A stretch of DNA of 64,000 bases from Capsulimonadales bacterium (GTDB taxonomy: Bacteria; Armatimonadota; Armatimonadia; Armatimonadales; Armatimonadaceae), in assembly GCA_033762295.1 (NCBI GenBank), contig JANRLW010000070.1:13371-77370 (forward strand), written 5' to 3'. The notes beneath the pieces are model-generated. The model searched no databases. It had not been told where the DNA came from and saw only the letters and a program-made list of their open reading frames with translations. The translations under genes were made by a program, and so were the position numbers. Shown piece after piece: positions 7,594 to 52,531 of the stretch; the first letter of the stretch is position 1, and each line of letters starts with the position of its first letter.

Positions 7594-9654
7594 TCAGCCC
7601 AGATGGTCGGCCAGATAACGATGGTACAGTTCGCACCGGAACCGGATCGCGCCGTCCCGCTTGCGGACGATTACCCCGGCGGACATCAGGCGATCGAACG
7701 AAACCGTGTCGGTTACCGTCGCCGTGCCGTTCAAAACCTGGCGCACGAACGCCCGGACCGTGGGCAATTCCGTAATCCCCAGCATCAGTCGCTGCAGATG
7801 GTCGTGGAACGGCCCGTCGTCCCGTATGGCGTCCTGTAGCAGCGCGGCGCAGGTGAACGTACCGGTCGCGACGCTATCCAGAGCACGACGCGAGAGAAAC
7901 GGCTGACCGGAGAGAAGCCCGTAGACCTGCTCCTCCTCGAACGACGACAGCGGGTTGCCGTAACGATGGTTCAGCAGGTGAAACTGTTCCGGATCGAAAT
8001 CGACGAGTTCCAGCTTTCTGCCGACGTTAAACGGCGACTGGTTCAGGTCCCGAATGAACAGGCGCGCTTCCGTCGCATAGGCGATGATCAGGGTGAGCCG
8101 GTCCCAGGGACCGTCGGGCCGGTTGGCACGGGAGTTGTGGAAGGAACGGATCAAACCGTAAAAATCGGAGGCGAATGTCGCCGGAAAGACCTTATCCGCT
8201 TCATCCAGGCACCAGACCAGCGGCGTGTCGGCCGAGTTTACCAGCGACTCCAGGAAATAGTTCAGATTTTCGTTGGGCGCGAGAAAGTCGTCCCATTCCT
8301 GTTCGAAGTCGTAACGAAACCCCTGCTGTTTGGCCATTGTGGCGGCCAGACCCCGATAGAAACGTTTCTCGTCGGCCAGGTAGGACGCATTCACCTGTTG
8401 GAAATCTGTCTGCAGAACGCGCGCGCCCGCGGCCCGCGCCTGCTGAGCCGCCCTCGCCAGCAGACTGGTCTTCCCGACCTGACGCGGCCCCGGAATCAGA
8501 ATGATGCTTTCACGGGCGTCCACCGCGGCGGTCAACAGAGTGTCGCACGGACGGGAAATATAGAACGCAGAGTTCAGCGGAACCGCGCCCCCGACCGGTT
8601 CCAGACGGGTCGCCTCCACCGGACGCAGGGGACCGCGAATCGCCGAAACGATCTCCGCGACGATCCGGTAATCGTCCTCGGAGGAGTTCCGGACCAGCGT
8701 CGGCAGATCGTGCAGCCAGCGGGTGACCTCGTCGTCCGCGTCAGGCAGTTCCTCGGTAAGCCCGACCAGCAACGGGAGAATAGCCGGTCGGCCCGTGTCA
8801 TCGAAAAACTCCCGGGCCTGCTCCAGTTCCCAGGGAAGCATCTCACTGCGGCGGCTTTCCGGTGAGACGACCGCAATCACCGCCTTTGCTGTTCGAATTC
8901 GCTCGCGCATCTCCTCGGCCCAGCCGGGCCGGAAGCACCGGTTGCGATCACGGAAGACGTGAAACCCCTGCTCCTCCAGAGAACGTTCGATAAAACGCAG
9001 TATCTCTTCGTCCCTTTTCCCGCCCCGACGACAGAGCAGCACCACGGTCGGCGAATCGGATTCGGAAACAAGATCGGACGCATTGATGGAAGGATGGACC
9101 CCTCCCCAGTGCGCCGGAATGGTCCGACTGCCGATCCGCATTCCCGCTTCCTCCGTCACCAGGGTGAACAGAGTCAGTTCCAATCCATGTTTGGCGATAC
9201 GCTGGCCGAGCGGGAAAAGGAGATTCCGCCAGTGATCGGACTGCCGAAGCCAGTTGGCATGCTGTTCCGAAAGCAGTATATGTCCGGCATCCCCCTGGTC
9301 CATGACGCGTTTGGCGGTATTGATTCCCTCGCCCACCACGTTCCGCTTCCCCGAAATATCGTTCAGGATATGCACCAGGCCGCTATGGAGGCCGATGCGG
9401 AGGGGGATGGCCCCGGCAATCCTCCGGGTCAATTCGATCGCACAGCGAACGGGCGCCGTGACGTCGTCCTGAAAGACGAGCGCCATTCCGTCTCCGGAGG
9501 GAACGGGAAGAACGCTTTCGGCCACCCGCGCCTCCACGAAAACGGGCAGTTGATCGACGGTTTCCGTCAGCAGCCCGAAGATGCGCGATTGCTCTTCCAG
9601 CGAAACCGTGCTGTAACCGACGATATCGACGAACAGAATGTGGGCGATCCTCAT
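7594..9654 (-). CDS. Class III nucleotide cyclase - TIR - AAA_35 (STAND-like) ATPase fusion
   Basis: LFVDIVGYS, SGDGM, RIGLHSG, GEGINTAKRV (cyclase); GFHVFRD..PGWAEEM...VVSPES..SE..WELE (TIR); GPRQVGKTS, LDEAD, SPFNVG (AAA_35); start uncertain. Confidence 0.82.
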   Translation of the reverse strand: MRIAHILFVDIVGYSTVSLEEQSRIFGLLTETVDQLPVFVEARVAESVLPVPSGDGMALVFQDDVTAPVRCAIELTRRIAGAIPLRIGLHSGLVHILNDISGKRNVVGEGINTAKRVMDQGDAGHILLSEQHANWLRQSDHWRNLLFPLGQRIAKHGLELTLFTLVTEEAGMRIGSRTIPAHWGGVHPSINASDLVSESDSPTVVLLCRRGGKRDEEILRFIERSLEEQGFHVFRDRNRCFRPGWAEEMRERIRTAKAVIAVVSPESRRSEMLPWELEQAREFFDDTGRPAILPLLVGLTEELPDADDEVTRWLHDLPTLVRNSSEDDYRIVAEIVSAIRGPLRPVEATRLEPVGGAVPLNSAFYISRPCDTLLTAAVDARESIILIPGPRQVGKTSLLARAAQQARAAGARVLQTDFQQVNASYLADEKRFYRGLAATMAKQQGFRYDFEQEWDDFLAPNENLNYFLESLVNSADTPLVWCLDEADKVFPATFASDFYGLIRSFHNSRANRPDGPWDRLTLIIAYATEARLFIRDLNQSPFNVGRKLELVDFDPEQFHLLNHRYGNPLSSFEEEQVYGLLSGQPFLSRRALDSVATGTFTCAALLQDAIRDDGPFHDHLQRLMLGITELPTVRAFVRQVLNGTATVTDTVSFDRLMSAGVIVRKRDGAIRFRCELYHRYLADHLG

Positions 9655-9655
9655 A

Positions 9656-9703
9656 GGTTTGGTCAATGGTTTGGTTAATGGTTGGGTTAATGGTTGGGTC
9701 AAG
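9656..9703 (-). repeat. 12-bp tandem repeat x4
   Basis: Minus strand ttgacccaacca ttaacccaacca ttaaccaaacca ttgaccaaacct. Confidence 0.8.
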
Positions 9704-9736
9704 GATTGGATGAAAGTTGGTGAATGCGGTGTTCTT

Positions 9737-12700
9737 CTACCGGGTCCCGGTCGGGCGAACCGCCGTCGCTCTCTCCGGATGGCCGGACGCTTCACGTCGA
9801 AGGACGAGAATCATCCGGCGATTGGGCCAGTCGGACGGGGCCGGGGGTCTGTTCGGCGCGTACTGTCCGGCCTGAAGCAGGCGCTCCCGTGCGGATTCCG
9901 GATTCTTCAGACGCGCCGCCGCCATGCCTCCGAAGGTCGCGCACCACGCTCGCTCCCAGTCCGACAGCGAATCCCACGCGCGCGAAGCGCGCAGCCGTTC
10001 ATACAGGGCGGATGCCTCGGCGTACCGGCCTTCCCGGTATCGCCAGGCCAGCACCACCGAAAGCTCGGGCGCCGACCCGTCTCCCATGAGATAGAAGGCC
10101 AACTCCGCGGCGTGCTCCCGGGTCTCCCGCGAGACCGACGGTGTGAGCGACGCCAGTCGGAGCGTGGAGACCGCCGCTTCGCGAATATTCTCCGCGGGCG
10201 TCTGCGGAGACGCGCCCAACCATTCGGTTACCAGTTGCGTCGCCCGGTCGCACAGAAACCGATACCCGCGTACGTCCCCTAACTCGAGGAGCAGTACCCC
10301 GCGTTCCGCCAGCAGATAGGTATTGCCGGAACCGCCCAGAAGGAAGGCGGTACGGTTCAGGTCCTCCAGCGCGCCCGCCGCCGCCCCCTGCCGAATCAGA
10401 GCGTAAGCCCGATGTTCCAGCGCCCATCGGTCGATCGGGTCCGCGGGGTCCGCCTCCGTGCTGTTGAGCAACTGCGTCAAATGCCCAACCGCCCCGGCCC
10501 AGTCGCCGCGAGCCAGACATACCTTCGCCCGCAGTTGCAGGACGCGCGTCGGGGCCGTCACCGGGTTCGTCCGATACGTCAGCGAAGCCCGCTTCAGCCG
10601 GGCCCAGGCGGAATCGGTCTCCGCCGGGGTCGGCAGCTTCATATCCCTCTCTTTCCGGTCACGGTTGAAAGGGAGAACATGCGTCGTCGCCAGTACGGCG
10701 GATAGGTCTTGCGCCTGGGACAGAGTCAGGGAGGAGATCGGCGTATCCCAGCAGACGACCCCCAGCCACCCACCGGAAGCGACCGATCGCCCGTCGGGGC
10801 TGATCGCCAGCGTCACACAGGAGTTGATTCGCTTACGCGGATCGTCCGTCCGGAGGAGGGACAGTACACGGGCGTCCTTGCGAAGGCCCATCAGCATGCC
10901 GGAGTCGGCGTCCCAGAAGCGCACGACACCATCCTTGTTGCCGGTTGCCACGAATTGACCGTCCGGGGAATAGGCGATTGACAGGATGGCGGTGCTGTCG
11001 CTGTCGCGGATCGGCGGGATGCTCCATCGTCCGGTTTGCAGGTCCCACAGGTAAACGGTATCGGCTTCGTTAAACCGGGTGAGAAGCCGTTGCCCGTCGG
11101 GGCTGAAATGCGCTTCGACCGGAGTATGCTCATGAGGAAGACGTCGCCATTCCTGGCCGTCGGCCACCCGATACAGGACGGCGTCCTGAGGTGCATCGTG
11201 ATCATTTCCGATCGCGCCGAAGCTGAGGAGGTGGCGCCCGTCAGGCGAGAAGCGGAGACAACTGCCCGAGGTATTTTCCTGACTCCGGACGAGTGAGCCG
11301 GAGTCGTTCAGGGAGCGTCGCCGGAGGTCTCTGAGTTCCATTCGCCGGTCTTGGGACAGGAGGGCGAGATACTGCCCGTTCGGACTGATATCCAGGTCGA
11401 CAATTCCGGCCGGCAGGCGCAGCGGAGTGTTCAAAGGACGTCGGGCACGCGGATCGACCGGAACGAGGGTCCCTTTATCGCCGGCGAGGTACAACGTACG
11501 GTGGTCGGCAAACCGGCAGCGACGGATGTTTTCGCCGCCGGGCAGGAGGAACCGACCGATGAGACGGCCTGACGGAACCTCATAGATCGCCACCCCCTCG
11601 GAGCGGGATTCGCTTCCCGTCCTGAGCGGCTCCGATAGAGGTGATCCGATCACCGTAACGTCCCGTTCGCTGCGGTACCTATCGAGAACGGCGACCAGTC
11701 GGCTGTCCGGACTGAAGCTGATGTGGTTCAGAGGGTAGAGATTGGACGCATTGAATGGCCGTGCGGACAACCAGGCCGTTTGCGCGATCCCGGTTCGGGC
11801 GTCGGTCAGCAGCATTCCCCCCTCACTCTTGATCAGAGCGATGAAATGGCTGTCCGGGCTGAAAACCGTTTGACGAACGAACATATCATGCCACATCGTC
11901 GTCAGTTGCCGGGCGGAGGACGGCGCGGTATCCCAGAGCCGCACCCGGTTACCATCATCCACCGTGAGAGCGAAGCGACCGTCCGGGCTCAGGTCCGCCG
12001 TTTTGGGAGAAGCCGCTATGCGCAAGGGAGAAGCGATACGCTGACCGGTCCGGGGATTCCAGAGGGCGGCGGTGTTATCCTTGCTGGCGGTAAGGAGTCG
12101 GTCGTTATCCCGTGCCATGACCAGGGAGACAAGCTGGGCGCCATGCGCATGGAAGGCCGTAATGAATCTGGCCTCAGCGCTGTTGCTACTAAGGGCATAG
12201 GTGAAGACGAGGCCGTTCATATTGGCGGCCAGAAGCAGTTCTTCGCCCGGTGCGAAGCAGGCCAGCGTGGTGTATTTTGTGTCGAGAAGGTGTTTTCCGT
12301 CGGGGTCTCTGGGAAACCGGACCTGTTCCTCCGCGCCGGGCGATGGCAGGGGAAGGAGGACGGTGCCGTACTCGGTAGCAAGGACGGCACGCCGGGCAGC
12401 GCGATCGAGGGCAACGGAATGAATCCCGCCCCAGACGGGAAGACGAGCGAAGGGGTCCGGGGAGGAGGCGGATCGACCGTCCGGCGGATCGAGTCGATAG
12501 AGGCAGAGAGAGTCCTGATTGTACGTTCGGGAGGGAAGCCGGACGGCGAGGAGTTGCCCGTCACGGCTGATCTCCGCCATGATCCGGGTGTCGGGGAGGG
12601 ATTGCTCGAACACGATGCGCCGTTCCTCGGTGTCAAAGACAAGGAATTTATTGAGTTCCCGTTTATCCGAAGATATCAGGCGAAGGACGATCCGACGGCC

Positions 12701-14800
12701 CCGGTCGGAGAGGCGGTAGCCGTCCGGTTCCATCCCGGGAGGAAGCGGCACGAAGAAGGGCGGACCGACCGTACGGACATGTTCTCCGATGATGTCGAGT
12801 ATTTGCGCCTGGAACCGACCGCCACGGGTTGTCCGAACGGTCAGCAGGCGATCCCGGTCCGCAGTGAAGGCCGCCACCCGGGGAAGGTCGTTCCGGTCGT
12901 CGTTCCGTTCCGCGAGCCGGGCGAGCGTGAATCCGTCCGGATCGGGCGTCGGAAACCGCAGTTTGAAAGCCGGGGACCGATCGGAGTCGCCGGCGGAAGA
13001 AATCAGTCCGCCATCCCGGCTAAAGGCGACAAACGGCGTATATCGGTCAACCGGCGTCGCCTGGAGGAGACGGGGCGACCGGTTCAACGCTTCCGTGATC
13101 TGGGTGCCATAGACCCGGCGTCGTTTCGGATCCTTTTCCCGGTTCCAGGCGTCGGCGAAGAACGGCAGGGAGGCCAGATAGTCTCCGGAGTGAACGGCGG
13201 CCATCGCCGTGTTGACGTCGCGAGTAATGACCTCCCATTCGGCGACCTGCTGGGATTGCTCGGCCCGTCGTCTCTGTCGGGCCTCGCTGATTCGCGCGGA
13301 GGAGGCGACCTGTTCCTGGCGTCGGGCCTCTCGGGCGGCCTTGTTGGCGCGTTGGCTGGCCTCCTCCGCCTGTCGCCTCTGCCGCTCGGCCATCCGTTTC
13401 TGTGTTTCGGCGACCCGTTTCTGCCCCTCGGCGATTTCGGTCTGCCGTCGAGCGTTATCCCGTTCCTCCTGGGCAATGAGCCGCTGTCGATCCGCTTCGC
13501 TCTTTTGGTTCTGGGCGATGGCCTTTTGTTGTTCGGCGATATTTTTCGCTTTCAGTGCCTCCGCCCGTTGCTGAAAAGCAAAAAATGCCAGTGCACCAAA
13601 AAGGAGGACCAGGGCGCTCAGGCCGAGCGCGGCCCGCTTTAACCCGGCGCGGTACGCGCTGCGCAGGCGGCGCTTCTCGGCGTCCGGACGGTTTTCGTCG
13701 ATCCATTCCCGGTCGAAGACCCGACGATAGATGCGGTTTCGGACACGAAGGCTACCCTGGTCCACGCGAACGATGCCGGACAGTTTCAGCAGTACGACCA
13801 GCGGGTTGGTTTCGTCATCGGGAACCTGCGACCGTTCCTTCAAAAGGCGCTCATACAGCGCCAGAATCGCCGCCTTCTGCGCGTCGTCCGCCGGGTCGAT
13901 CGATCCCGTCTTCCGGGTGAGCATCCGGTTGGCAACATCGGCCAGGTGGACGTTCCCCCGGCGCGCGGCGCGTTCGAAATACATCTCCTCGACGAGAGCG
14001 TCCACCATGCGGACAGTGCGAAGCGAGGTGTCCTCAGCGATGCGGGCGCAGAGAGATTGGGTAAGAAACGGGTGTCCGCCGGTCCAGTAGTAGACACGAT
14101 CCAGCCAGGCGTCGCCCGCGCGACCGGCGCGATTCAGCCCTTCGCCGAGGGGAGCGATCTCCTGCCGGGTGAAGTCGCGCAGGTCGATCAACCGCCCGAT
14201 ATTGAACGGGGACAGGCGCGTGTCGCTGACCAGATCCGCCGGCGCCGCGGAACCGACGAGGCAGAAGGTGAGATGACGGAGGGCGGGTTGAGAGACACGC
14301 CGGTTGTAGAGCGACCGCAGGGCTCCGAAAAACTCATCCCGGGAGAAGGAAAGGTTGAGAACGGAATCGATCTCGTCGAGAATCAGAACGATCGGGCCGT
14401 CGATGCGGGCCAGAGCGATCTCCTCCAGGGCGGAAAAGAGCCAGGAGACCGGCGTCTGCTCGGCGCGTTCCCGACGATGCTGAGTGAATTCGGCATGCAG
14501 ACCGAGTTCGCGTCCGATCCGACTGAGCAGCGTCGCATACCACGCGGCCGAGGTGGCGTTCACTCCGCCGATCGCGCTGAGTTCGAGGTAGACCGTGCGA
14601 ACGTTGCGCGCCTCCAGCTCCTGCCGAACGCGGACGCAAAGCGAGGACTTGCCCATCTGCCGCGTATTCAAAAGGTAACAGTACTCGCCGTCCAGCAGAC
14701 CATGGAGCAGTTTCTCGTCGGAGTCTCTGACCAGATAGGAGGGGGCGTCGGTGGGAAGTGTGCCTCCGATGCGGAAAAAAGTACGGTCGTGTGCGGACAT
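9737..14800 (-). CDS. AAA_35 (STAND-like) ATPase - TM - coiled coil - WD40 repeats - TPR-like protein
   Basis: NTRQMGKSS Walker A, LILDEID Walker B, SPFNIG, WTGGHPFLTQ; one TM (ALGLSALVLLFGALAFFAF); many FSPDG...WD repeats. Confidence 0.87.
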   Translation of the reverse strand: MSAHDRTFFRIGGTLPTDAPSYLVRDSDEKLLHGLLDGEYCYLLNTRQMGKSSLCVRVRQELEARNVRTVYLELSAIGGVNATSAAWYATLLSRIGRELGLHAEFTQHRRERAEQTPVSWLFSALEEIALARIDGPIVLILDEIDSVLNLSFSRDEFFGALRSLYNRRVSQPALRHLTFCLVGSAAPADLVSDTRLSPFNIGRLIDLRDFTRQEIAPLGEGLNRAGRAGDAWLDRVYYWTGGHPFLTQSLCARIAEDTSLRTVRMVDALVEEMYFERAARRGNVHLADVANRMLTRKTGSIDPADDAQKAAILALYERLLKERSQVPDDETNPLVVLLKLSGIVRVDQGSLRVRNRIYRRVFDREWIDENRPDAEKRRLRSAYRAGLKRAALGLSALVLLFGALAFFAFQQRAEALKAKNIAEQQKAIAQNQKSEADRQRLIAQEERDNARRQTEIAEGQKRVAETQKRMAERQRRQAEEASQRANKAAREARRQEQVASSARISEARQRRRAEQSQQVAEWEVITRDVNTAMAAVHSGDYLASLPFFADAWNREKDPKRRRVYGTQITEALNRSPRLLQATPVDRYTPFVAFSRDGGLISSAGDSDRSPAFKLRFPTPDPDGFTLARLAERNDDRNDLPRVAAFTADRDRLLTVRTTRGGRFQAQILDIIGEHVRTVGPPFFVPLPPGMEPDGYRLSDRGRRIVLRLISSDKRELNKFLVFDTEERRIVFEQSLPDTRIMAEISRDGQLLAVRLPSRTYNQDSLCLYRLDPPDGRSASSPDPFARLPVWGGIHSVALDRAARRAVLATEYGTVLLPLPSPGAEEQVRFPRDPDGKHLLDTKYTTLACFAPGEELLLAANMNGLVFTYALSSNSAEARFITAFHAHGAQLVSLVMARDNDRLLTASKDNTAALWNPRTGQRIASPLRIAASPKTADLSPDGRFALTVDDGNRVRLWDTAPSSARQLTTMWHDMFVRQTVFSPDSHFIALIKSEGGMLLTDARTGIAQTAWLSARPFNASNLYPLNHISFSPDSRLVAVLDRYRSERDVTVIGSPLSEPLRTGSESRSEGVAIYEVPSGRLIGRFLLPGGENIRRCRFADHRTLYLAGDKGTLVPVDPRARRPLNTPLRLPAGIVDLDISPNGQYLALLSQDRRMELRDLRRRSLNDSGSLVRSQENTSGSCLRFSPDGRHLLSFGAIGNDHDAPQDAVLYRVADGQEWRRLPHEHTPVEAHFSPDGQRLLTRFNEADTVYLWDLQTGRWSIPPIRDSDSTAILSIAYSPDGQFVATGNKDGVVRFWDADSGMLMGLRKDARVLSLLRTDDPRKRINSCVTLAISPDGRSVASGGWLGVVCWDTPISSLTLSQAQDLSAVLATTHVLPFNRDRKERDMKLPTPAETDSAWARLKRASLTYRTNPVTAPTRVLQLRAKVCLARGDWAGAVGHLTQLLNSTEADPADPIDRWALEHRAYALIRQGAAAGALEDLNRTAFLLGGSGNTYLLAERGVLLLELGDVRGYRFLCDRATQLVTEWLGASPQTPAENIREAAVSTLRLASLTPSVSRETREHAAELAFYLMGDGSAPELSVVLAWRYREGRYAEASALYERLRASRAWDSLSDWERAWCATFGGMAAARLKNPESARERLLQAGQYAPNRPPAPSDWPNRRMILVLRREASGHPERATAVRPTGTR

Positions 14801-16626: not shown

Positions 16627-16789
16627 AGGTGCGGAACTTATCGCGAAGAATTCCTGCGCCAATCCTGTTCGGTACGCACCGATAATCGTAGAGACAGTCA
16701 TGCTGAAACCGACCCGCACCCAGGTTCGCGCCCTCTATACGACATGGCCCGACGATGGTACAGCAGGCCAGCGACCACACACGGCATGA
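16619..16789 (+). pseudogene. Orphan C-terminal coding tail starting in the att core (copy 1)
   Basis: LGAGAELIAKN...YAPIIVET..LKP.R.Q.RALYTTWP..GTAGQRP; homologous to 28664-28846 with many synonymous differences. Confidence 0.6.
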
Positions 16790-16859
16790 ACTGACTTGGC
16801 TCCCGAATGATCTACCCCTTCGGTTCGGGAGCCTCATCGTATATTGCTCGAATCTTGGC

Positions 16860-17085
16860 GGCATACACAGTATCGTTTACATTGTTGACCGCCGAGCGGT
16901 AGTGGCGGAACTTGGCGGCTATTTCCGCCGCGTCTGTCGAGGAACTGTTCGACCTGCTCGCCCAGCAGAAGGTCAAACCGGTGATCGCCGATGTCATGCC
17001 CCTGCGTGATGCGGCAAAGGCAAACGAAAGGCGCGAAAAAGGCGAAGTAAAGGGCAAATTAGTGCTGAAGTGCAATTTCGAGTAG
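16860..17085 (+). pseudogene. C-terminal remnant of a medium-chain dehydrogenase/quinone reductase
   Basis: ELFDLLAQQKVKPVIADVMPLRDAAKANERREKGEVKGKLVL*; no start, apparent frameshift upstream. Confidence 0.7.
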
Positions 17086-17098: not shown

Positions 17099-17308
17099 TC
17101 AGGCGAGACGGCGTTTTTCGACGATATCGATCTGGACCACCCGCCCGTCCTGAATAATCAGTTGGACAGAGCCATGGCGGACCTTCTCAATCGCGGCTTT
17201 GATTTCCTCAATCGGGATCGGGTGACCGTTTTTTACCGTATCCGATAGATCCGTCGGAGGAGCGGGGGGGTTGTCACTGACCTGAGCGATCTTTCCGGTT
17301 CGGTACAT
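17099..17308 (-). CDS. DUF2292 (YezD/OscA-like) small protein
   Basis: IKAAIEKVRHGSVQLIIQDGRVVQIDIVEKRRL. Confidence 0.85.
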   Translation of the reverse strand: MYRTGKIAQVSDNPPAPPTDLSDTVKNGHPIPIEEIKAAIEKVRHGSVQLIIQDGRVVQIDIVEKRRLA

Positions 17309-17347: not shown

Positions 17348-18130
17348 TTATATCACTGATGCTACGTTTATGTCAATCTGACGTGCATCTGTTTCCGGTA
17401 CAGGCTTTTTTCGTCCAAGCAATTCGTCCAGGATATGCTCCTCGATCTTGGTGAACTCGATGGCGCTGTGGTTGCGGGGACGTGGAAGATCGACCGTTAT
17501 CGTATCCACGATCCGCCCCGCATCCAGCACGATCACACGGTCTGCAAGCGCAATCGCCTCCTCGACATCGTGTGTCACCAGAATGACGGTGAACCCCTCT
17601 TCAAGATAGAGTTCCTCGATCAATTGCTGCATCTCACGCCGGGTCAGCGCATCCAGCGCTCCCAGTGGTTCATCAAGCAACAGGAGCCTTGGACCGCTTG
17701 CCAGAGCACGGGCAAGCGCCACGCGCTGACGCTGTCCGCCCGAAAGAACGCCCGGCCAGTCCCCGGCGCGATCCTCCAGGCCGACATGCGATAATGCCCG
17801 CTGTACATGCTCGCCCGGCAACAATCCAAGCCCGATATTGTCGCGCACCCGTTGCCAGGGCAGGAGACGCGCCTCCTGAAACATCAGGCGTACATCGGGC
17901 GGAGTCCCGGCAAAGGTCTGACCATCGCGTCGAATCTGACCACGGGTCGGTGTATCGAGTCCGGCGGTCAGCCGGAGCAACGTGGATTTACCGCAGCCGC
18001 TCTTCCCGACGATGGCGACAAACTCCCCGGCCTCGACCGTGAGATCGATCCCTTTAAGGACGACCTTTGCTCCAAAAGATTTCTCCACCCCCTCGACGGT
18101 CAGGCGGGTGCCGCGCTCTTGCTGTCGCAT
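17348..18130 (-). CDS. ssuB: Aliphatic sulfonate ABC transporter ATPase
   Basis: [41 protein letters not shown]. Confidence 0.9.
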
Positions 18131-18990
18131 GTTGCCCTCTCCTTCCCCTCGGATCCCGGTGGCTGTGTCGCCTTTGCCCTCGTGTTTTGCTGACGTTCTG
18201 GCGGCGGTGTGGCCAGGTAATTCGCGTTCCAGGACAGCAGACGCCGTTCCAGCGCACGCGCAATCACATCGGCCAGTTTCCCCAGTAATGCATAGATCAG
18301 GGTTCCGACAACAACGATATCGGTCTGCATAAACTCCCGCGCCGTCGTGGTCAGATAACCGATGCCCGCCTCCGCTGCCAGCGCTTCCGCCGCAATCAAT
18401 GTCAGCCACATCGAGCCAAGCGAGAAACGCAGACCGACCAGGATAGAGGGCAGAGCGCCGGGAAAGATCACCAGACGGAACAATCGCCATCCGCGCAGAC
18501 CATAAACCTCTGCCATCTCGCGCAGACCGGGATCGATCGAACGAATGCCATGGTAGGTGTTGAGATAGAGCGGGAAGAAAACCCCGAGCGCGATCAGAAA
18601 GACCTTAGTCTCCTCCCCGATGCCGAACCAGAGGATGACCAGGGGAATCATCGCCAGGTTGGGGATCGTGCGCAACATCTGCACCGTGCTATCGAGCAAC
18701 GTGTAGGCGAGCCGTGACAGACCGGTGAGCAGACCAAGAGCAAAGCCAATGCTTCCTCCGATGAAAAGCCCGGTCAGCGCACGACCGGAGCTAACGGCGA
18801 GATGTTTCCAGAGATCCCCCGACTGGATCAAGGTCGACCCCGCCTTCAGGACAGCCGTTGGCGCGGGCAGGATCTTTGTCGGCAGAATGCCGGTGACGGA
18901 GAGAATATGCCAGAGCAGAAACAGCGTCAGAGGCAAGGCATAGGGCAATATGGCACCAGAAATCGCTCCGATTCGCCTGTTTATCTTCAC
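18100..18990 (-). CDS. ssuC: Aliphatic sulfonate ABC transporter permease
   Basis: [54 protein letters not shown]. Confidence 0.92.
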
Positions 18991-20024
18991 GGTCGAACGT
19001 TCTTTCTGTCAGCCGGAGCAAGAAGGGCATACTGCGCCGGGGTCAATGTCGCCTCGCGCACATCGATCTTTCGTGGCAGCAATCCGATCTTATAGAAGTT
19101 ATCCGCCGAGGTCTGTTGCGCTGCGATTATTTTTTCATCAATGGAACGAGCGCCCGTTCGAGAGCGCCGCTGCAAAAGAAACGTCAGCGTTTCCTTATCG
19201 ACTCCCGTGTTCCGAGCAAGCAGATCGGCGGTTTCCTGCGGATGCTGGTAGGACCATTCGCTCGCCCGATCCACCTCCTCCAGAACGATCTTGATCAACT
19301 CCGGATGCTCCTCGGCGAACTTGCGCGAGGAGAGATAGAACGCTCCCGGCGTGTTGATTCCCACACGATTGGCGATGATCCGTGCCCCGCTCTGTTTTAT
19401 CGCGACCGCGAGAAACGGGTCCCAGACGACCCAGGCATCGATCTTCCCGGACTCGAATGCAACGCGTGCATCCGGTGGCGCAAGATAGAGCGGTTGTATG
19501 TCCGAGTAGGCGATTCCCGCCTTCTGCAGATGCTGCAACAGCAGATTATGAGAGCCGGATGCCTTTTGAAAGGCGATCTTCTTCCCCTTCAAGTCCTGAA
19601 CCGATCGTATCGGTGAGTTTTTGGGGACGATGATCGCCTCACCATCCTCGGCATGCTCACCAAGGGGAATATTGGCAATATAGACAAGTGGGGTTCCGGC
19701 GGCCTGAGCGAACAGCGCCGGAGAGTCGCCGGTCGAGCCAATATCGATACTTCCGACTCCAAGCGCTTCAAGCAGAGGCAGTCCGGCAGTGAAATTGAGC
19801 CACTCGACGCTCACTCCTGCCGGTGCCAGACGCTTCTCCAGGTCGCCACGTAGTTTCAGCAGATTGAGCGGGTCGGCACGCTGATGCCCGATTCGCAGGA
19901 CGACATGCTTCCGGTTCGTGGCGGCAACACCTGTCGCCGCTGTCTCCCCGGCGGGCCGGGAACAGCCGGAAAGACAGACGCAGACCCCTAACAGCACCAG
20001 AATAAACCCGCACATCCTGCTCAT
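18987..20024 (-). CDS. ssuA: Aliphatic sulfonate ABC substrate-binding lipoprotein
   Basis: LSGC lipobox, LRIGHQ, F.AG.PLLEAL..GSID, DLKGKKIA, DAWVVWDPF. Confidence 0.88.
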   Translation of the reverse strand: MSRMCGFILVLLGVCVCLSGCSRPAGETAATGVAATNRKHVVLRIGHQRADPLNLLKLRGDLEKRLAPAGVSVEWLNFTAGLPLLEALGVGSIDIGSTGDSPALFAQAAGTPLVYIANIPLGEHAEDGEAIIVPKNSPIRSVQDLKGKKIAFQKASGSHNLLLQHLQKAGIAYSDIQPLYLAPPDARVAFESGKIDAWVVWDPFLAVAIKQSGARIIANRVGINTPGAFYLSSRKFAEEHPELIKIVLEEVDRASEWSYQHPQETADLLARNTGVDKETLTFLLQRRSRTGARSIDEKIIAAQQTSADNFYKIGLLPRKIDVREATLTPAQYALLAPADRKNVRP

Positions 20025-20044: not shown

Positions 20045-20923
20045 TTAGTCTTCGATAAACCAGCCAGCGGCGCTCGGATACTTCACCCGGCTGTAGACGA
20101 CACCGTTGGGATTGGGATTCGGCACCAGATTCTGATAGGACGCAAGCGACCCATCGGTGATGGAGGGGTTCGGGTCGCCGGTGTAGGACGGCGTCGAGGA
20201 TCGGACCCACTTGGCATGTCCATCGCCGAACGCGTAGTTGCCGCCGTCACTATGGCGGCTGCGCCCGGTGAAATACTCCGCGCTACAGATCACGGCATCC
20301 GGGATCTGGGCCAGAACGACGGGATCATCGATGCCATCGGTCCAGACACAGCGGCCACGCGCCTCCGTCAACAGGATTACCTGCGCCGGGTACTGTGGCT
20401 TGGCCAGGGTGGCGGAAGGAATCCGTCGTTCGGCGGCGACATTGAGCGCCATGGTCCCAATCAGGTATCGATTGACCGAATAGGAGAGCGAGGGGCGATA
20501 GGGGTTGCCTGCGGTCGAGTTGCCCGCGGTCCGCCCGGACTTATCGAAGGCGGGGCAGACAAAGATGCTTTTGCCGCCAGCCTGGGCGACGCTCGATGCC
20601 ATCCCCGCCTTGATATAGGGATCGACGGTATAGAGCCAGGTAACGTTGCCGATGCCGGGCGTCGCGCCCTCCGGCGTCGAGTTGGCCAGGGGATAGGTCT
20701 CATCGTAATCCTGTGCATACATCAGAAAACCGAGACCAAGCTGCTTCAGGTTTGAGAGGCAGGTCGTCTGTCGTGCTTTGTCCCTTGCCTGGGCGAACAC
20801 TGGGAAAAGAATCGCTGCCAGTATGGCGATTATGGCGATAACAACGAGCAGCTCGATCAGCGTAAACCCCGCTCCGGGGTGGAAACCGGATATGATCTTC
20901 CGATACGTGGGAGATGGTTTCAT
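20045..20923 (-). CDS. Prepilin-type N-terminal cleavage/methylation DUF1559 protein (H-X9-DG motif)
   Basis: [43 protein letters not shown]...[17 protein letters not shown]. Confidence 0.9.
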
Positions 20924-20977: not shown

Positions 20978-22054
20978 CTAACGTTCCTGGACAAGGGGCA
21001 GAAGTGGGAATACCAGTTCCGCGAACCGGTACGCCTCTTCAAGGTGGGGATAGCCTGACAGAATAAAACTGTCGATGCCGAGGTCCGCGTACTCGCGCAT
21101 CCGTTCGGCGACGGTCGCCGGATCGCCGACCAGGGCGGTGCCAACGCCGGGGCGCACCAGACCCAGACCGGCCCACAAGTTGGGACTGACCTCAAGGTGC
21201 GGGCCGCGTTTGCCTCCGTGCAGAGCCTGCATTCGACGTTGCCCTTCCGAGTTATCCCGTGAAAGCCAGTCCTGTGCGCGGGCGATCGTCTGATCGTCGA
21301 GACGCGAGATCAGTCGATCCGCCGCTTCCCAGGCCTCGTCACAGGTCTCACGCACAATGACATGCAGGCGGATACCAAAACGCACCGTTCGCCCGAACTC
21401 CGCCGCCTTCTCACGAACGCGATCTAATTTCTCTTTGACCTGCGCGGGCGGTTCCCCCCAGGTGAGATAGACATCGCTATGCCTGGCTCCGACCCGGATG
21501 CCCTCATCGGAGGAGCCGCCGAACCAGAGCGGCGGATAGGGCTTTTGTACGGTCGGGAACGGGTTACTCCCCCCCTCGATCCGGAAGAAGTCCCCCGCGA
21601 AGTCCGCTTTGCCCTCCTCCAAAAGAGAACGCCAGACGGTCAGGAACTCATCGGTCACCTGATAGCGGCGATTGTCCTCGACAAAGATCCCTTCCGCCGC
21701 CATCCGGTCCTGCGCTCCGCTCCCCGTCACGATATTGATCAGCAGACGTCCTCCGGTCATCCGGTCAAACGTCGCCGCCATACGCGCCGCCAGAGCGGGC
21801 TGCATGATCGCCGGGCGGATCGCCACCAAAAAGCGTAACCGCTGGGTCAATGCCGAGAGCCCGGATGCCAGAACCCACCCCTCCGGGCAGCCGACACCGG
21901 TCGGGAGCAATGCGCCATAGTAGCCAAGGGAATCCAGAGCCGTCGCCAGCGTCTTGAGGTAACCAAAGTCGGTCTGCCGACGCAGGACAGGTGAGCCAAG
22001 ATAATGCTCATCGCCCGGAGTCGGAAAAAACCAGAGAACGCGAATTCCACTCAT
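20978..22054 (-). CDS. ssuD: FMNH2-dependent alkanesulfonate monooxygenase (luciferase-like)
   Basis: LLPTG, RFLVAIRP, RLLINIVTG, FGGSS, YLTWGEPP, LEVSPNLWAG, FILSGYPHLEEAYRFAELVFP. Confidence 0.88.
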   Translation of the reverse strand: MSGIRVLWFFPTPGDEHYLGSPVLRRQTDFGYLKTLATALDSLGYYGALLPTGVGCPEGWVLASGLSALTQRLRFLVAIRPAIMQPALAARMAATFDRMTGGRLLINIVTGSGAQDRMAAEGIFVEDNRRYQVTDEFLTVWRSLLEEGKADFAGDFFRIEGGSNPFPTVQKPYPPLWFGGSSDEGIRVGARHSDVYLTWGEPPAQVKEKLDRVREKAAEFGRTVRFGIRLHVIVRETCDEAWEAADRLISRLDDQTIARAQDWLSRDNSEGQRRMQALHGGKRGPHLEVSPNLWAGLGLVRPGVGTALVGDPATVAERMREYADLGIDSFILSGYPHLEEAYRFAELVFPLLPLVQER

Positions 22055-22085: not shown

Positions 22086-22182
22086 CCAAAACGACGAAAG
22101 GCTGGAAACCCGGCCAGAAACCGCCCGATTCCTCCGGCAGTCTCCAGCAGAAAGGTTTCCAGCCTCCTGTTGACAGGTCAGC
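22086..22182 (-). ncRNA. Conserved structured 5' leader/attenuator, copy A
   Basis: GCTGA-CCTG-TCAA-CAGG-AGGCTGGAAACC...GGTTTCCAGCCT-TTCGTCGTTTTGG. Confidence 0.7.
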
Positions 22183-22202
22183 TACTTTCTCAAATTTATC
22201 GC

Positions 22203-22250: not shown

Positions 22251-22279
22251 AGTATAGCCTGGCATTTCAGGTATGTCAA
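22251..22279 (-). promoter_or_regulatory. sigma70 promoter of the ssuD-DUF1559-ssuACB-DUF2292 operon
   Basis: TTGACA-17 bp-TATACT. Confidence 0.8.
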
Positions 22280-22315: not shown

Positions 22316-22344
22316 TTGACAACGGGGTTCTATCGGGGCATAAT
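22316..22344 (+). promoter_or_regulatory. sigma70 promoter of the ssuD2-ssuA2-tauD-AKR operon
   Basis: TTGACA-17 bp-CATAAT. Confidence 0.75.
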
Positions 22345-22438
22345 GCCCGAACAAGCAAAGTTGATTTTAGCAATCAACTAACCGGCAATTTAATAGCGTA
22401 TTCCGTTTTTACGCTATGCCGGCGGTCCGTTACGACCG

Positions 22439-22512
22439 GCTGACCCGTTAACGGGAGGCCAGAGCTTTATGAACGACATTTCGTTCGTAAAGCTCTGGCC
22501 TCGTTTTTTTGG
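22439..22512 (+). ncRNA. Conserved structured 5' leader/attenuator, copy B
   Basis: GCTGA-CCCG-TTAA-CGGG-AGGCCAGAGCTTTATGAACGA-CATT-TCGTTCGTAAAGCTCTGGCCT-CGTTTTTTTGG. Confidence 0.7.
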
Positions 22513-22538: not shown

Positions 22539-23744
22539 ATGAACGGACTCGATGTTTTCTGGTATTTACCGACACAGGGTGATGAACGATATCTCGGCAC
22601 CTCACACGGACTGCGAAAGCCGACGCCCGCCTATCTGCAACAGATCACGCAGGCGGTCGATTCCCTAGGCTACGGGGGCATGTTGCTCGGCACGGGCACC
22701 AAACTCGACCCGTTGATCGTGGCCACTTCCCTGATCCATGTCACAAAACGCCTCAAGTTTCTGGTCGCGGCCCGCCCCTCCATCATGACGCCTGCACTCT
22801 GGGCACGTATGGCGGCCAGTTTCGATCAGTTGTCGCAGGGACGGATTCTGCTCAATATCGTCACCGGCGGCAGCACCGAACAGTTGGAGAGCGATGGGAT
22901 CTTCGCCGATCATGAGGAGCGCTATGAGATCACCGATGAGTTCCTGCATATCTGGCGCTCCCTGATGCTCGGGGAAACGGTGAATTTCGAGGGCAAACAT
23001 CTCCGCATCAAAAACGGCCAGCAGCAGCTACAGCCGATCCAGAAGCCCTATCCTCCGCTCTACTTCGGCGGTTCCTCCCCTGCGGCGCTCGATGTCGCCG
23101 CCCGCCATATCGATGTCTACCTCTCCTGGGGCGAACCGCCGGCGATGGTCCGGGAAAAGATCGAGGAGGTGCGCCGCCGTGCCGCTACCCATGGACGCAC
23201 TCTTCGCTTTGGTATCCGTCTCCATATCATCGCCCGTGAGACCGATGCCGAAGCCTGGGCCGTCGCCGAGAAACTGATCCAGCATGTCAGCGATGAGTCG
23301 ATCCAGCGAACGCTTAAATCCTATGAGCGTTCTGAGTCCGAGGGACAGAAACGGATGGCGTCGCTTCACAACGGTCGGCGCGACAGTCTGGAAATCTACC
23401 CCAACCTCTGGGCGGGTGTCGGCCTTGCCCGTGGCGGCGCGGGAACCGCTCTGGTCGGATCGGGCCAATCCATTGCCCGTCTGATGGGCGAGTATCAGGA
23501 GCTTGGCATCGACACCTTTGTTCTTTCCGGCTACCCCTCGCTTGAGGAAGCCTATCACTGCGCCGAGTATGTTTTCCCCCATCTGAAACAGCCCGTTCCC
23601 GCGACCTCGCCCTTTAACTCAGGTACGGAAGGGCCACAGATGGCACGCTGGCGCACCGCCCACGATGTTTCCGAATCGGCAGTCCAGTCTCCGCTAACGA
23701 AGGTCGCCGCACGAAATGAACCGGCGCTTTCAGGAAGGAACTGA
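22539..23744 (+). CDS. ssuD: Alkanesulfonate monooxygenase paralog
   Basis: VFWYLPTQGD.RYLG, KFLVAARP, YLSWGEPP, LEIYPNLWAGVGLARGGAGTALVG. Confidence 0.88.
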   Translation: MNGLDVFWYLPTQGDERYLGTSHGLRKPTPAYLQQITQAVDSLGYGGMLLGTGTKLDPLIVATSLIHVTKRLKFLVAARPSIMTPALWARMAASFDQLSQGRILLNIVTGGSTEQLESDGIFADHEERYEITDEFLHIWRSLMLGETVNFEGKHLRIKNGQQQLQPIQKPYPPLYFGGSSPAALDVAARHIDVYLSWGEPPAMVREKIEEVRRRAATHGRTLRFGIRLHIIARETDAEAWAVAEKLIQHVSDESIQRTLKSYERSESEGQKRMASLHNGRRDSLEIYPNLWAGVGLARGGAGTALVGSGQSIARLMGEYQELGIDTFVLSGYPSLEEAYHCAEYVFPHLKQPVPATSPFNSGTEGPQMARWRTAHDVSESAVQSPLTKVAARNEPALSGRN

Positions 23745-23746
23745 TC

Positions 23747-24814
23747 ATGCGAGGTACACCCCTTCCTCTCCTGTCGCTCACGCTATGGATACTGACCATC
23801 ACCGGTTGTACGACAACGCCGACCGGGAGCGGCACAACAACAGCACAGGCTCCAGTGAAGCTACGGATCGGTTATGGCAAAGGCGGCAACTTCAATATCA
23901 TGCGCCTGCGCGGCACACTGGAGAAGCGGCTTGCCGGACAGAATGTGAAGGTCGAATGGATCAACTTCCCGATGGGGCCGCAGGCGATGGAGGCGATCGG
24001 TACACGTAGCCTGGAGATCGGCAGCACCGCCGCCACCCCTCCGCTCTTTGCGCAGGCGGCGGGAATCGACTTCGTCTATGCCGCCAACACTCCTCCTGGC
24101 AAATCCGGCAGTGGCGGCGCAATCATCGTCCCGATCGATTCGCCGCTTCGCTCCCTTCGTGATCTCAAAGGGAAACGAGTCGCTTTTCAGCCCGGCGCGG
24201 TCTGGCAGTACCTGCTGATCAAGGCGCTGGAACGTGAGGGAATGCAGTATTCCGATATCATTGCGGTCAAGATGCCGCCCGCCGATGCCACCGCCGCCTT
24301 TCATAGCGGTTCCATCGACGCCTGGGTTCAGGGTGAGCCCTACCTCACGCTGGTGCAGCAGAAGGGTGAGGGGCGCATTCTGGTCAGTACAAAGGACATC
24401 CCGACCTCCGGTGGCTTTATTCTCACACCACGCACCTTCGCCGCCGAACACCCGGAACTGATCCAGGTGACGCTCGATGAACTGCGAAAGACAGGCGATT
24501 GGGCGCGGCAGCACCCGCATGAGGCAGCCACCATGACCGCGCAGTCCGGCGGGTTAGACGTGCCCACCCTCGAACAGATGATCCGCCAGCAGGAGAACAC
24601 CGAACTGCGCCCGGTCGATGCCAGCGTCATTGCGCTTCAACAGGAGCAGGCCGACTATCTGACCCGTCTCAAGATCCTACCCCGGAAGATTGCGGTGCAG
24701 GATGCCGTGCTCTCCGCAGACCAGTACGCCCGTATTCTGCCGCCTCCCGCATCCCATCAGGAGGCGCGTGCGATACAGACCACTTCCACGATTCATCAGA
24801 CCCGCGAAAGGTAG
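23747..24814 (+). CDS. ssuA: Sulfonate ABC substrate-binding lipoprotein paralog
   Basis: ITGC lipobox, LRIGY, WINFPMGP, FAQAAG, DLKGKRVA. Confidence 0.82.
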   Translation: MRGTPLPLLSLTLWILTITGCTTTPTGSGTTTAQAPVKLRIGYGKGGNFNIMRLRGTLEKRLAGQNVKVEWINFPMGPQAMEAIGTRSLEIGSTAATPPLFAQAAGIDFVYAANTPPGKSGSGGAIIVPIDSPLRSLRDLKGKRVAFQPGAVWQYLLIKALEREGMQYSDIIAVKMPPADATAAFHSGSIDAWVQGEPYLTLVQQKGEGRILVSTKDIPTSGGFILTPRTFAAEHPELIQVTLDELRKTGDWARQHPHEAATMTAQSGGLDVPTLEQMIRQQENTELRPVDASVIALQQEQADYLTRLKILPRKIAVQDAVLSADQYARILPPPASHQEARAIQTTSTIHQTRER

Positions 24815-24821
24815 ATTTTCC

Positions 24822-25772
24822 ATGTCCACGCAAACTTTAGACGTGCCCGTCGCTTCACGGAACGCCGCTCATCTGACAATCTCTCCGGTGACGCCGGTCA
24901 TTGGCGCGGAGGTGTCCGGCATCGACCTGCGCCAACCGCTCGATGACTTCACCATCGACCAGCTTAAAAATGCCCTGCATCAATGGAAGGTCCTGTTTTT
25001 CCGCGATCAGCCGATCAGCGATCAGGACCAGTTGCGCTTCGGTCGCTACTTCGGCCCGCTGACACCGGCGCACCCGATCGCCGAGGGACTGCCAGAGCAT
25101 CCGGAGATCTGGGAGCGGTCGGCATCGGAGTACAAGCGCCATCGCCCTGATGTCTCCGTCGTGACGGCGCGTCCGCCCCGTGACTACAAGGGCTGGCATA
25201 TCGATATCACCTTTGTCGCAAACCCCAACAAGTACTCGATTCTACGTGGCGTCGAGATCCCGGCCTATGGCGGCGATACGCTCTGGAGCAATCTGGTTGC
25301 CGCCTATGAGGGACTATCCCCGAAGATCAAGGAATTGATCGACGACCTGCAAGCGGTGCACGGCACAAGCAGTTATGATCGCGGAAGCGGCGACAAACCG
25401 CGCAAGGGACCGTTCGTCTCCCTGCACCCACTGGTTCGCGTGCATCCGGAGACGCGGGAGAAAGCGCTCTTCTTCAATCCGGGAACGACAACCCATATCA
25501 TCGGACTGCGCGAGCGTGAGAGCCAGGCGATCCTCGACCTGCTTGCGGAGGAGGTGACGCGCCCGGAATATCAGGTTCGGTTCCACTGGTCCCCGAATGC
25601 AATCGCCTTCTGGGATAACCAGGTGACCGCCCATGCCGGTCCGATCGACTATGCCCACTTCACCGCGACGCGCACCGTGCGACGTATCACGGTGGCGGGT
25701 GACCTGCCGGAAGGACCGGACGGTTTCCGTTCCCGGCCGATTGAGGGCGAGCTTTTCGGAATTATCGGGTAA
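24822..25772 (+). CDS. TauD/TfdA family 2OG-dependent dioxygenase (taurine or alkylsulfate)
   Basis: IGAEVSGIDL, WHIDITF, GGDTLW, HPLVRVHPET, FWDNQVTAH. Confidence 0.9.
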   Translation: MSTQTLDVPVASRNAAHLTISPVTPVIGAEVSGIDLRQPLDDFTIDQLKNALHQWKVLFFRDQPISDQDQLRFGRYFGPLTPAHPIAEGLPEHPEIWERSASEYKRHRPDVSVVTARPPRDYKGWHIDITFVANPNKYSILRGVEIPAYGGDTLWSNLVAAYEGLSPKIKELIDDLQAVHGTSSYDRGSGDKPRKGPFVSLHPLVRVHPETREKALFFNPGTTTHIIGLRERESQAILDLLAEEVTRPEYQVRFHWSPNAIAFWDNQVTAHAGPIDYAHFTATRTVRRITVAGDLPEGPDGFRSRPIEGELFGIIG

Positions 25773-25830
25773 CACGGAAAGAGCGGTCCTATCGTTTCGG
25801 TGGGGCCATCTCGAAAGGAAATTTCACCGC

Positions 25831-26859
25831 ATGGCAGGAATCGTTCCGACTGTTCCACTGGGTAAATCCGGCCTAAAAGTCAGTAACCTTTGCCTTGGCT
25901 GTATGAATTTCGGGGAGTCTACGAGTGAGGAGGACTCGCTGGAAATACTGCGTCAGGCGCATGAAACCGGCGTCACCTTCTGGGATACCGCCAATGTCTA
26001 CAGCAATGGCGGCAGTGAGGCCATTCTCGGCAAAGCCTTTGAACAATTCGGCTTTCGGGATGAGATCATTCTTGCTACCAAGGTCAACGGTGCGATGGGT
26101 CCCGGTGCCAATGACCGCGGGCTTTCGCGTCGGCATATCTTAAAAGCCGTCGAGGACAGCCTGCGTCGTCTGAAGACCGACTATATCGACCTCTACCAGA
26201 TGCATCGCTATGACCCGACTGTGCCTCTGGATGAGACCCTGGAAACGCTCCATCTGCTTATCCAGCAGGGCAAGATCCGCTACTATGGCACCAGCACCTT
26301 TGCCTCATGGCAGATGGCGGATGCGCTCTGGCGGGCGCGGCTCAAGGGATGGAACGAGGCAGTGAGCGAGCAGGCCCCGTACAATATCCTCGACCGACGC
26401 ATCGAAAACGACCGGGCCGGGTTCCTGCGCCAGTACGGTTGGGGTCTGATTCCCTGGTCACCGCTCGCCGGGGGACAGCTTACCGGCAAGTACGGCCAGA
26501 TTCGCCCGGATAACCTGCCGGAGGGCTCCCGTATCCAGCGCAACGACCGCTGGCGCGAACGGACCAACTCCACCGCCGCTGAGGCATCCCTCGCCTTTAC
26601 CGCGCTCGCACAGGAGCATGGCTACGATCCCTCTGTCGCCGCCACTGCCTGGGTCCGTCAGCAGGACATCGTCACCGCGCCGATTGTCGGCCCGCGCACG
26701 CTGGAGCAGTTTACAGGCCTTCTGCCCGCCGCGAATCTGGTCCTGCCCGCAACCTTCCTGAGCGCCGTCGATGAGATCGTTCCACCGGGAACTGCCGTCG
26801 CCCACTTCCTGAACAACGCCGGATGGCAGATCGGTCGCCTCTCCGGCCTGGACAAATAG
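25831..26859 (+). CDS. Aldo/keto reductase
   Basis: LGKSGLKVSNLCLG, DTANVY, LATK, SLRRLKTDYIDLYQMH, WSPLAGG. Confidence 0.9.
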   Translation: MAGIVPTVPLGKSGLKVSNLCLGCMNFGESTSEEDSLEILRQAHETGVTFWDTANVYSNGGSEAILGKAFEQFGFRDEIILATKVNGAMGPGANDRGLSRRHILKAVEDSLRRLKTDYIDLYQMHRYDPTVPLDETLETLHLLIQQGKIRYYGTSTFASWQMADALWRARLKGWNEAVSEQAPYNILDRRIENDRAGFLRQYGWGLIPWSPLAGGQLTGKYGQIRPDNLPEGSRIQRNDRWRERTNSTAAEASLAFTALAQEHGYDPSVAATAWVRQQDIVTAPIVGPRTLEQFTGLLPAANLVLPATFLSAVDEIVPPGTAVAHFLNNAGWQIGRLSGLDK

Positions 26860-26868: not shown

Positions 26869-26897
26869 TTGACAGGGAATCGCTTTCGTGTTATAAC
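26869..26897 (+). promoter_or_regulatory. sigma70 promoter of the second DUF1559 gene
   Basis: TTGACA-17 bp-TATAAC with extended -10 TG. Confidence 0.8.
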
Positions 26898-26918
26898 GAA
26901 AACGCAATCACATATTCG

Positions 26919-26938: not shown

Positions 26939-26952
26939 TAATCAAAACCAGT

Positions 26953-27017
26953 GCTGACCCGTCATCGGGAGGCCGGTAGAATCGCAAACCGCGATCTACC
27001 GGCCTTTGTCTTTTTGG
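26953..27017 (+). ncRNA. Conserved structured 5' leader/attenuator, copy C
   Basis: GCTGA-CCCG-TCAT-CGGG-AGGCCGGTAGAATCGC-AAACC-GCGATCTACCGGCCT-TTGTCTTTTTGG. Confidence 0.7.
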
Positions 27018-52504: not shown

Positions 52505-52531
52505 TCAAGCGAGGGAGCAAAACAACGAGCG

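Follow-up and report, generated by a model that had tools for sequence, protein, structure and literature searches.

The window, i.e., the whole stretch of DNA that was analysed (64,000 nucleotides), harbors on its minus strand an open reading frame (ORF; 17099-17308) whose translation consists of 69 amino acids followed by a stop codon. The protein matches the Pfam family PF10055 (DUF2292) with 54.9 bits (E 6.4e-15; gathering cut-off 22), its residues 33-68 being aligned to positions 2-37 of the 37 positions of the profile. It also matches the NCBIfam OscA equivalog NF033785 with 26.7 bits (E 4.1e-6), a score lying under the cut-off of 85, so that the protein is related to OscA without being an orthologue of it. 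The ATG start codon at 17308 is backed by homologues sharing 57-81% identity and beginning with MY(R/T)T(G/A)K. No other DUF2292 gene was found in the source genome, which is 94.5% complete. Of 14 control genomes, that of Bacillus subtilis alone had a PF10055 match.

The DUF2292 gene closes a minus-strand operon with the order ssuD-DUF1559-ssuA-ssuC-ssuB-DUF2292. The first gene, ssuD (20978-22054), encodes an FMNH2-dependent alkanesulfonate monooxygenase (TIGR03565, 537.5 bits, cut-off 518.2) and is followed by a DUF1559 gene (20045-20923), whose product is of the prepilin type (N-methylation motif and H-X9-DG; Pfam and NCBIfam). Then come two genes assigned with Pfam, i.e., an ssuA-like gene for an NMT1-type substrate-binding protein (18987-20024) and an ssuC-like ABC permease gene (18100-18990), and an ssuB-like ABC ATPase gene (17348-18130, with an approximate start; PRK11247, 319.9 bits, which does not reach the equivalog cut-off of 395), whose stop codon at 17348 is separated by 39 nt from the DUF2292 gene. 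The ORF, the PF10055 match and the gene order agree with the first-pass annotation, according to which the protein is encoded by the last gene of a leader-controlled ssu operon. Nothing lies 3' of it except for a convergent, broken zinc-dehydrogenase fragment: two overlapping short ORFs on the plus strand (16755-17085), the second of which resembles a zinc-binding dehydrogenase at its C-terminal end (ADH_zinc_N_2), are probably a frameshifted pseudogene.

A second unit (22539-26859) is divergently oriented on the plus strand and embeds ssuD2 (22539-23744), ssuA2 (23747-24814), tauD (24822-25772) and an aldo/keto reductase gene (25837-26859), and a second DUF1559 prepilin-type gene (27030-27896, plus strand; Pfam) represents a third unit. 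Promoter-like sites were recognized for the ssuD...DUF2292 operon (TTGACA-17-TATACT, 22251-22279, minus strand) and for the divergent ssuD2-ssuA2-tauD-aldo/keto reductase operon (TTGACA-17-CATAAT, 22316-22344, plus strand); each of them agrees with the consensus at 11 of 12 positions and both look constitutive. A further TTGACA, followed by a 17-nt spacer and TATAAC, was spotted by eye before the third leader (26870-26898, plus strand) and is missing from the promoter scan list because its last base is not T. The absence of any other regulator from the island, which had been claimed on first inspection, was borne out in that Pfam recognizes none between 14.8 and 30 kb, a region that also carries a PHP-domain protein, a weak PIN match and one ORF without a Pfam family. 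Beside the sulfur island, a gene for a TIR and AAA_35 protein (7594-9795, minus strand, 733 amino acids) and one for an AAA_35 and WD40 protein (9737-14800, minus strand, 1687 amino acids) can be read as a STAND-like NTPase pair.

Each of the three units is preceded by a leader containing a hairpin of 23 nt, in which two 4-bp stems, a lower and an upper one, are separated by a GA/A internal loop and the upper stem is capped by a tetraloop. Copy 1, AGCUGACCUGUCAACAGGAGGCU (22161-22183, minus strand, -8.9 kcal/mol), provides with its 3' side the 5' base of a terminator-like stem (22090-22166, minus strand, -47.9 kcal/mol) followed by UUUCGUCGUUUU. Copy 2, GGCUGACCCGUUAACGGGAGGCC (22438-22460, plus strand, -12.1 kcal/mol), has 6 nt in common with an intrinsic terminator (22455-22510, plus strand) consisting of a 22-bp stem (-41.2 kcal/mol) and U7, and copy 3, UGCUGACCCGUCAUCGGGAGGCC (26952-26974, plus strand, -10.1 kcal/mol), precedes the second DUF1559 gene together with the terminator of the third leader (26969-27016, plus strand, -28 kcal/mol, UUUGUCUUUUU). 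Hence, in all three leaders the last 5-6 nt of a hairpin of -8.9 to -12.1 kcal/mol are at the same time the base of a terminator stem of -28 to -48 kcal/mol ending in a U-rich tract, and this overlap between hairpin and intrinsic terminator is the arrangement of antitermination-type leaders.

The pattern GCUGACC-N-GU-N-A-N-C-N-GGAGGC is present in each leader, its third copy being at 26953. Allowing up to three mismatches, it occurs six times in the window (0.29 expected); three of these matches are those of the leaders, and the remaining ones are read as chance matches, two of them from their context (at 45798 inside an ORF and at 52531 over a ribosome-binding site), besides one at 40073. All three hairpin matches of the source genome (E<=0.1) are located within 10 kb of its sole DUF2292 gene. 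The search of the whole window against Rfam 15 returned only a tRNA above the gathering score and no hairpin family, and that of the leaders (E<=5) gave chance miRNA and snoRNA rows, far under their gathering scores.

In the predicted structure of the 69-aa protein (mean pLDDT 67, about 80 in the core, i.e., moderate confidence), an N-terminal stretch of about 30 residues, variable among homologues and poorly modelled, is followed by a helix (33-42) and a beta-hairpin (46-53 and 56-64) whose QDG turn is invariant. The conserved core is about 40 residues long, its net charge is close to +1, and the invariant positions are G46, V48, Q53, D54, G55, Q59, K65, R67 and L68. The C-terminal end is EKRRLA; the basic C-terminus that had been noticed in the sequence is thus found locally (KRR), not over the last 41 residues, whose net charge is about +0.9. 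Given the small size of the unit, the modelled protein probably needs to oligomerise. It has neither Cys nor internal Met, which fits a protein of sulfur starvation. A persulfide or sulfur carrier of the TusA/YeeD type is ruled out, as 22 of the 23 aligned members are devoid of Cys and the single Cys is in an over-extended N-terminus.

The comparison with known families and folds did not place the protein anywhere else. The single sequence had no match in the PDB, and the best profile match (E 0.26) covered 23 residues in a reductase that is unrelated. The Foldseek search of the model against the PDB gave nothing at E<=0.001, its top rows being the N-domain of AbrB, MazE and dodecin at E of about 2 (a dodecin-like flavin carrier was considered). 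The best Z with VIA-align against 48,161 chains was 2.8, for a modelled core of only about 37 residues, and the ESM Atlas search returned DUF2292 clusters only. The HutP, CAT_RBD and ANTAR families did not match the protein, the Pfam scan at E<=0.01 giving PF10055 alone. The search for fused forms disclosed no more than two longer DUF2292 proteins, so that DUF2292 normally stands alone. Only one of the two is a clear case (P0008, 266 amino acids, on a 1.1-kb contig); it joins DUF2292 to acyl-CoA dehydrogenase domains and could be either a true fusion or a gene-calling artefact.

A model of the hairpin was built on 21 sequences, three from the window and 18 from relatives, most of the latter adjoining DUF2292 genes. 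In this set, 93.5% of the cells pair and 21 cells change on both sides, and none of 500 shuffles reaches the covariation score. Among 46 matches from public loci, 96.5% of the cells pair, with 60 double-sided changes and again none of 500 shuffles reaching the score, values to be read knowing that alignment to the model leans towards its structure; none of the 46 departs from G14, A15, A28 or the closing pairs, a U-G wobble dominates (40/46), and the tetraloop of the hairpin matches is usually (A/U)CAA. The hairpin is a real co-varying RNA element that competes with terminators. A different view would be that DUF2292 is a small AbrB/MazE-type DNA-binding protein and that the "hairpin" is its palindromic operator, as the Foldseek rows might suggest, but their E of about 2 is not significant. 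A DNA palindrome would not account for the prevailing U-G wobble, nor for G14, A15 and A28, which are invariant and asymmetric, and both traits indicate RNA. The asymmetry of the internal loop, the free variation where bases pair, an orientation that is constant with respect to the gene that follows, and the fusion with terminators point in the same direction, and we regard the operator explanation as very improbable.

The co-occurrence of DUF2292 and the hairpin, the check that had been proposed together with the first reading of the locus, gave a clearly positive result, both in two lineages unrelated to each other and in loci of about eight phyla. Among 41 relatives (two families of one order), DUF2292 was found in 18 genomes and the hairpin (E<=1e-3) in 17, 16 genomes having both, one the hairpin only (G013, 90% complete), two the protein only and 22 neither; at a looser threshold (E<=0.1), the hairpin is found in 24 of the 41. 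Of the two genomes with the protein only, G024 has a weak protein match and G033 a weak hairpin directly after the gene. In a sample of 151 genomes of the phylum, six of whose positive genomes are also in the sample of relatives, DUF2292 occurs in 14 and the hairpin (E<=1e-3) in 13; all 13 carry both, one genome has the protein only (G070, a weak match), and 137 have neither, a class including four genomes with weak hairpin matches alone (E 0.002-0.006). In the order of a Geobacter-labelled genome, 46 of 101 genomes have DUF2292 and 32 the hairpin (E<=0.01), i.e., both in 30, hairpin only in two (G228 and G229), protein only in 16 and neither in 53. The genomes within these samples are related and the counts, which ignore kinship, are not independent; moreover, given that the model derives mostly from hairpins adjoining DUF2292, divergent hairpins of DUF2292-free genomes could be missed in them.

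The ssu genes do not account for this association, since ssuD (at least 500 bits) is present in only six of the 16 relatives having both elements, and G039 and G040 harbor ssuD in the absence of both DUF2292 and the hairpin. The ANTAR family, used as a control, is present in 41/41 relatives and does not track the hairpin. We consider a functional link of some kind between DUF2292 and the hairpin to be very likely.

The two elements are also close to each other in the genome. Of the 18 relatives having DUF2292, 14 carry a hairpin that begins within about 120 nt 3' of the gene on the same strand. A scan with one genome per species disclosed 514 DUF2292 loci; the best 80 of them were inspected, and 78 of these had at least 120 nt past the stop codon, the public loci counted having played no part in building the model. 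Within 250 nt after the DUF2292 stop codon, a hairpin of at least 20 bits is present in 43 of these 78 loci (at least 15 bits in 50, at least 30 bits in 25), typically 10-70 nt past the stop codon. This zone makes up 1.8% of the sequence searched, yet it contains most of the 74 hairpin matches. The loci are labelled in their records as Armatimonadota, Chloroflexota, Planctomycetota, Omnitrophota, Bacillota (Thermincola, Pseudobutyrivibrio and Eubacterium), Geobacter, Actinomycetota and Proteobacteria. The remaining 35 of the 78 loci from the best 80 of 514, including one of the Bacillaceae (L133), have no hairpin of at least 20 bits in the 250-nt zone. DUF2292 and the hairpin are tightly linked in genomes, and they display the genetic linkage between regulator and target that characterizes systems of the HutP/LicT type.

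A hairpin 5' of DUF2292 is rare, as in Actinomycetota, where the order is hairpin, TauE, DUF2292. Since the hairpin is mostly 3' of the gene, the protein is usually not under the control of the hairpin and is encoded just before it. In a close relative (L137), the order is DUF2292, hairpin and terminator, ssuD, DUF1559, ssuA, and the last three share 65, 56 and 67% identity, respectively, with their counterparts in the window operon; the DUF2292 gene is therefore at the front of the operon in L137 and at its back in the window. DUF2292 follows an ABC ATPase gene, as in the window, in seven of the best 80 of the 514 loci, one of which, the Isosphaeraceae locus L134, contains an ssuA-ssuD-ssuC-ssuB-DUF2292 cluster. 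In five Planctomycetota loci (L104, L106, L128, L085 and L134), two hairpin matches lie about 46 nt apart after DUF2292, a tandem arrangement that could be a hint of binding by an oligomer.

On these grounds, DUF2292 is the best candidate for a trans-acting antiterminator that would read the 23-nt leader hairpin, as the first-pass annotation had proposed; we take it to be HutP-like, a reading for which we see an even chance. The small size of the core, its net charge near +1, the moderate confidence of the model and the fold searches, which matched no solved structure, weigh against it. An overlap with the terminator, as a target of antitermination should have, and a link maintained across phyla are what is expected if DUF2292 reads the hairpin. 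The hairpin would be transcribed first, and its last 5-6 nt double as the bottom of the far stronger terminator stem; without any factor, the terminator would prevail and transcription would halt in the leader. DUF2292, probably as an oligomer and perhaps together with a sulfur-related ligand, would clamp the hairpin, so that the base of the terminator could not form and RNA polymerase would continue into the ssuD, ssuABC, tauD and DUF1559 genes. RNA binding by DUF2292, the direction of its effect, its oligomeric state and the point of entry of the sulfur signal are what we infer in this scheme.

In the source genome, the DUF2292 gene is located 3' of the terminator that its product would relieve. 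Some leakage is needed for this arrangement to work, which, like the constitutive look of both promoters, counts against the antiterminator reading; leaky read-through would yield more DUF2292 factor, from which the positive feedback suggested in the first-pass annotation would follow. Such feedback is a local variant, most genomes placing the gene ahead of the switch. Control of the hairpin by a leader peptide, through the translation of an ORF located before it, was also considered and rejected for the window, given that the DUF2292 gene is 5 kb 3' of the hairpin and that the leaders contain no convincing ORF.

Some known antiterminators allow a comparison. In the BglG/LicT/SacY systems, the RAT is a short hairpin interrupted by internal loops, which has part of its sequence in common with the 5' arm of the terminator and needs stabilisation by the protein. 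The leader hairpin of the window is likewise short, has an internal loop and overlaps a terminator, whereas DUF2292 has neither the CAT RNA-binding domain nor a PRD, and its core of about 40 residues is far smaller. Response regulators with an ANTAR domain (PF03861) are RNA-binding antiterminators acting on hairpins that overlap terminators, and their targets are two hexaloop hairpins; unlike DUF2292, ANTAR occurs in every one of the 41 relatives, hairpin or not. The closest analogy is with HutP. In the case of hutP, the regulator gene comes first and the target follows. The same holds for most DUF2292 loci, in which the gene is directly before the terminator that the protein would act on; in the window, on the contrary, the DUF2292 gene is the last and not the first of its operon. 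The Pfam and fold searches showed no relation of HutP to DUF2292, and HutP binds XAG-rich single-stranded sites, whereas the candidate target of DUF2292 is one structured hairpin of 23 nt. The likeness is in the proposed role, that of a small protein which blocks a terminator stem and thereby allows the transcription of the catabolic genes behind it, as HutP does with the hut terminator of Bacillus subtilis (PMC2425495).

The distribution of the two elements is open to another explanation, in which DUF2292 is a co-regulated accessory protein of sulfur starvation that does not bind RNA and the hairpin is read by a small molecule, i.e., as a minimal riboswitch embedded in the terminator, or by another protein. 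Very small hairpin riboswitches, such as guanidine-II, exist, so the size of the hairpin alone is no bar to a metabolite sensor. Nevertheless, a self-sufficient riboswitch would not need DUF2292, yet all 13 hairpin genomes of the phylum sample and 30 of the 32 of the Geobacter-type order carry it. In the window, DUF2292 is a downstream member of a gated operon, as an accessory protein might be; in most loci, instead, it is just 5' of the hairpin and hence unregulated by it. Among other proteins, one universal candidate was checked, i.e., ANTAR, whose presence in all 41 relatives makes it unspecific. The fold searches disclosed no RNA-binding fold for DUF2292, and 16 of the 46 DUF2292 genomes of the Geobacter-type order have no hairpin match, two points that are in line with an accessory role. 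The latter point, together with the 35 of the 78 loci, implies that the family may have another or wider role, or else that the model misses variants of the hairpin; conversely, the hairpin without a detected DUF2292 is limited to G013, G228, G229 and four weak matches. The accessible part of the work on OscA assigns no function to this small protein, described only as encoded in a sulfate-transporter cluster and induced together with sbp (PMC2996968), a picture that would suit an accessory protein. Overall, we consider this explanation unlikely, about half as probable as the antiterminator reading.

It might also be that DUF2292 does act on the hairpin without being a stand-alone antiterminator, its effect consisting in the stabilisation of the mRNA or of its 3' end or, where the hairpin has no terminator behind it, in translation control, or requiring a partner protein. 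The paired hairpins of Planctomycetota, 46 nt apart, would agree with this, as would two genomes (G006 and G020) in which the hairpin is followed by a ribosome-binding site and a start codon, with no terminator. In all three copies of the window and in most of those of the relatives, however, the hairpin abuts a terminator-like stem with a U-rich tail. This possibility appears to us less probable still than that of an accessory protein.

The antiterminator reading can be extended to the whole family. Slightly more tentatively than for the window itself, we propose that the DUF2292/YezD/OscA proteins, whose core has about 40 residues, are RNA-binding antiterminators of minimal size found across bacteria, which together with an uncatalogued 23-nt hairpin would switch on sulfur scavenging in at least eight phyla; the odds of this broader claim are just short of even. 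If it is true, sulfonate and sulfate transporters, SsuD, TauE, MetK and the DUF1559 pseudopilin-like genes are under one protein-RNA switch, and the short list of protein-dependent antiterminators gains a protein family and an RNA element, both of them new. To our knowledge, little is known about sulfur regulation beyond the proteobacterial CysB/Cbl and the Gram-positive S-box/CymR models; the switch would cover Armatimonadota, Planctomycetota, Chloroflexota, relatives of Geobacter and others. The DUF2292/YezD/OscA family is widespread and known only as induced by sulfur starvation, and an RNA partner gives a precise hypothesis on it. Among the matches listed in the searchable literature, no paper assigns a molecular function to DUF2292/YezD/OscA and none links the family to RNA; the hairpin and the proposed antiterminator role of DUF2292 are undescribed in Rfam 15 and in that literature. 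The sulfur-starvation context of the window gene matches the context of oscA in the accessible part of the published work, where the inactivation of oscA is reported to make Pseudomonas corrugata sensitive to chromate (PMC2996968). The proposed switch, if true, would account for these reported oscA phenotypes, which concern sulfur and chromate.

The genes located downstream of the hairpin were surveyed starting from 49 hairpin matches and taking the first ORF of at least 70 amino acids; one match had no ORF and five ORFs of up to 100 amino acids were dropped, leaving 43. The most populated class is that of DUF1559 prepilin-type proteins (11/43), followed by NMT1/SsuA-like binding proteins (6/43), TauE/SafE (4/43), luciferase-like proteins of the SsuD type, MetK and ANTAR response regulators (2/43 each), and one sulfate-type binding protein (SBP_bac_11); nine ORFs belong to other families, one each, and six to no family. 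From these assignments, the hairpin-gated genes share a sulfur theme. The DUF1559 genes behind the hairpin come from loci L082, L083, L089, L092, L102, L104, L106, L108, L111, L124 and L139, and these prepilin-like genes, whose role is enigmatic, would thereby be placed in a sulfur-limitation regulon. In L011 (from G006) and L039 (from G020), the hairpin without a terminator is 25-45 nt before the start codon of DUF1559 and may also act on translation or mRNA stability. In two Chthonomonas-type loci, an ANTAR gene is located directly after the DUF2292-hairpin pair (L078:2665-3321, with a receiver domain in addition, and L084:1651-2400), which would place a second, putative RNA-binding antiterminator beside the first candidate, DUF2292. 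Finally, in the Geobacter-labelled locus L150, whose genome has three DUF2292 matches and seven hairpin matches, hairpins are found before a NifH-like ATPase gene and a gene encoding a B12-binding domain, so that in some lineages the regulon may extend beyond sulfur.
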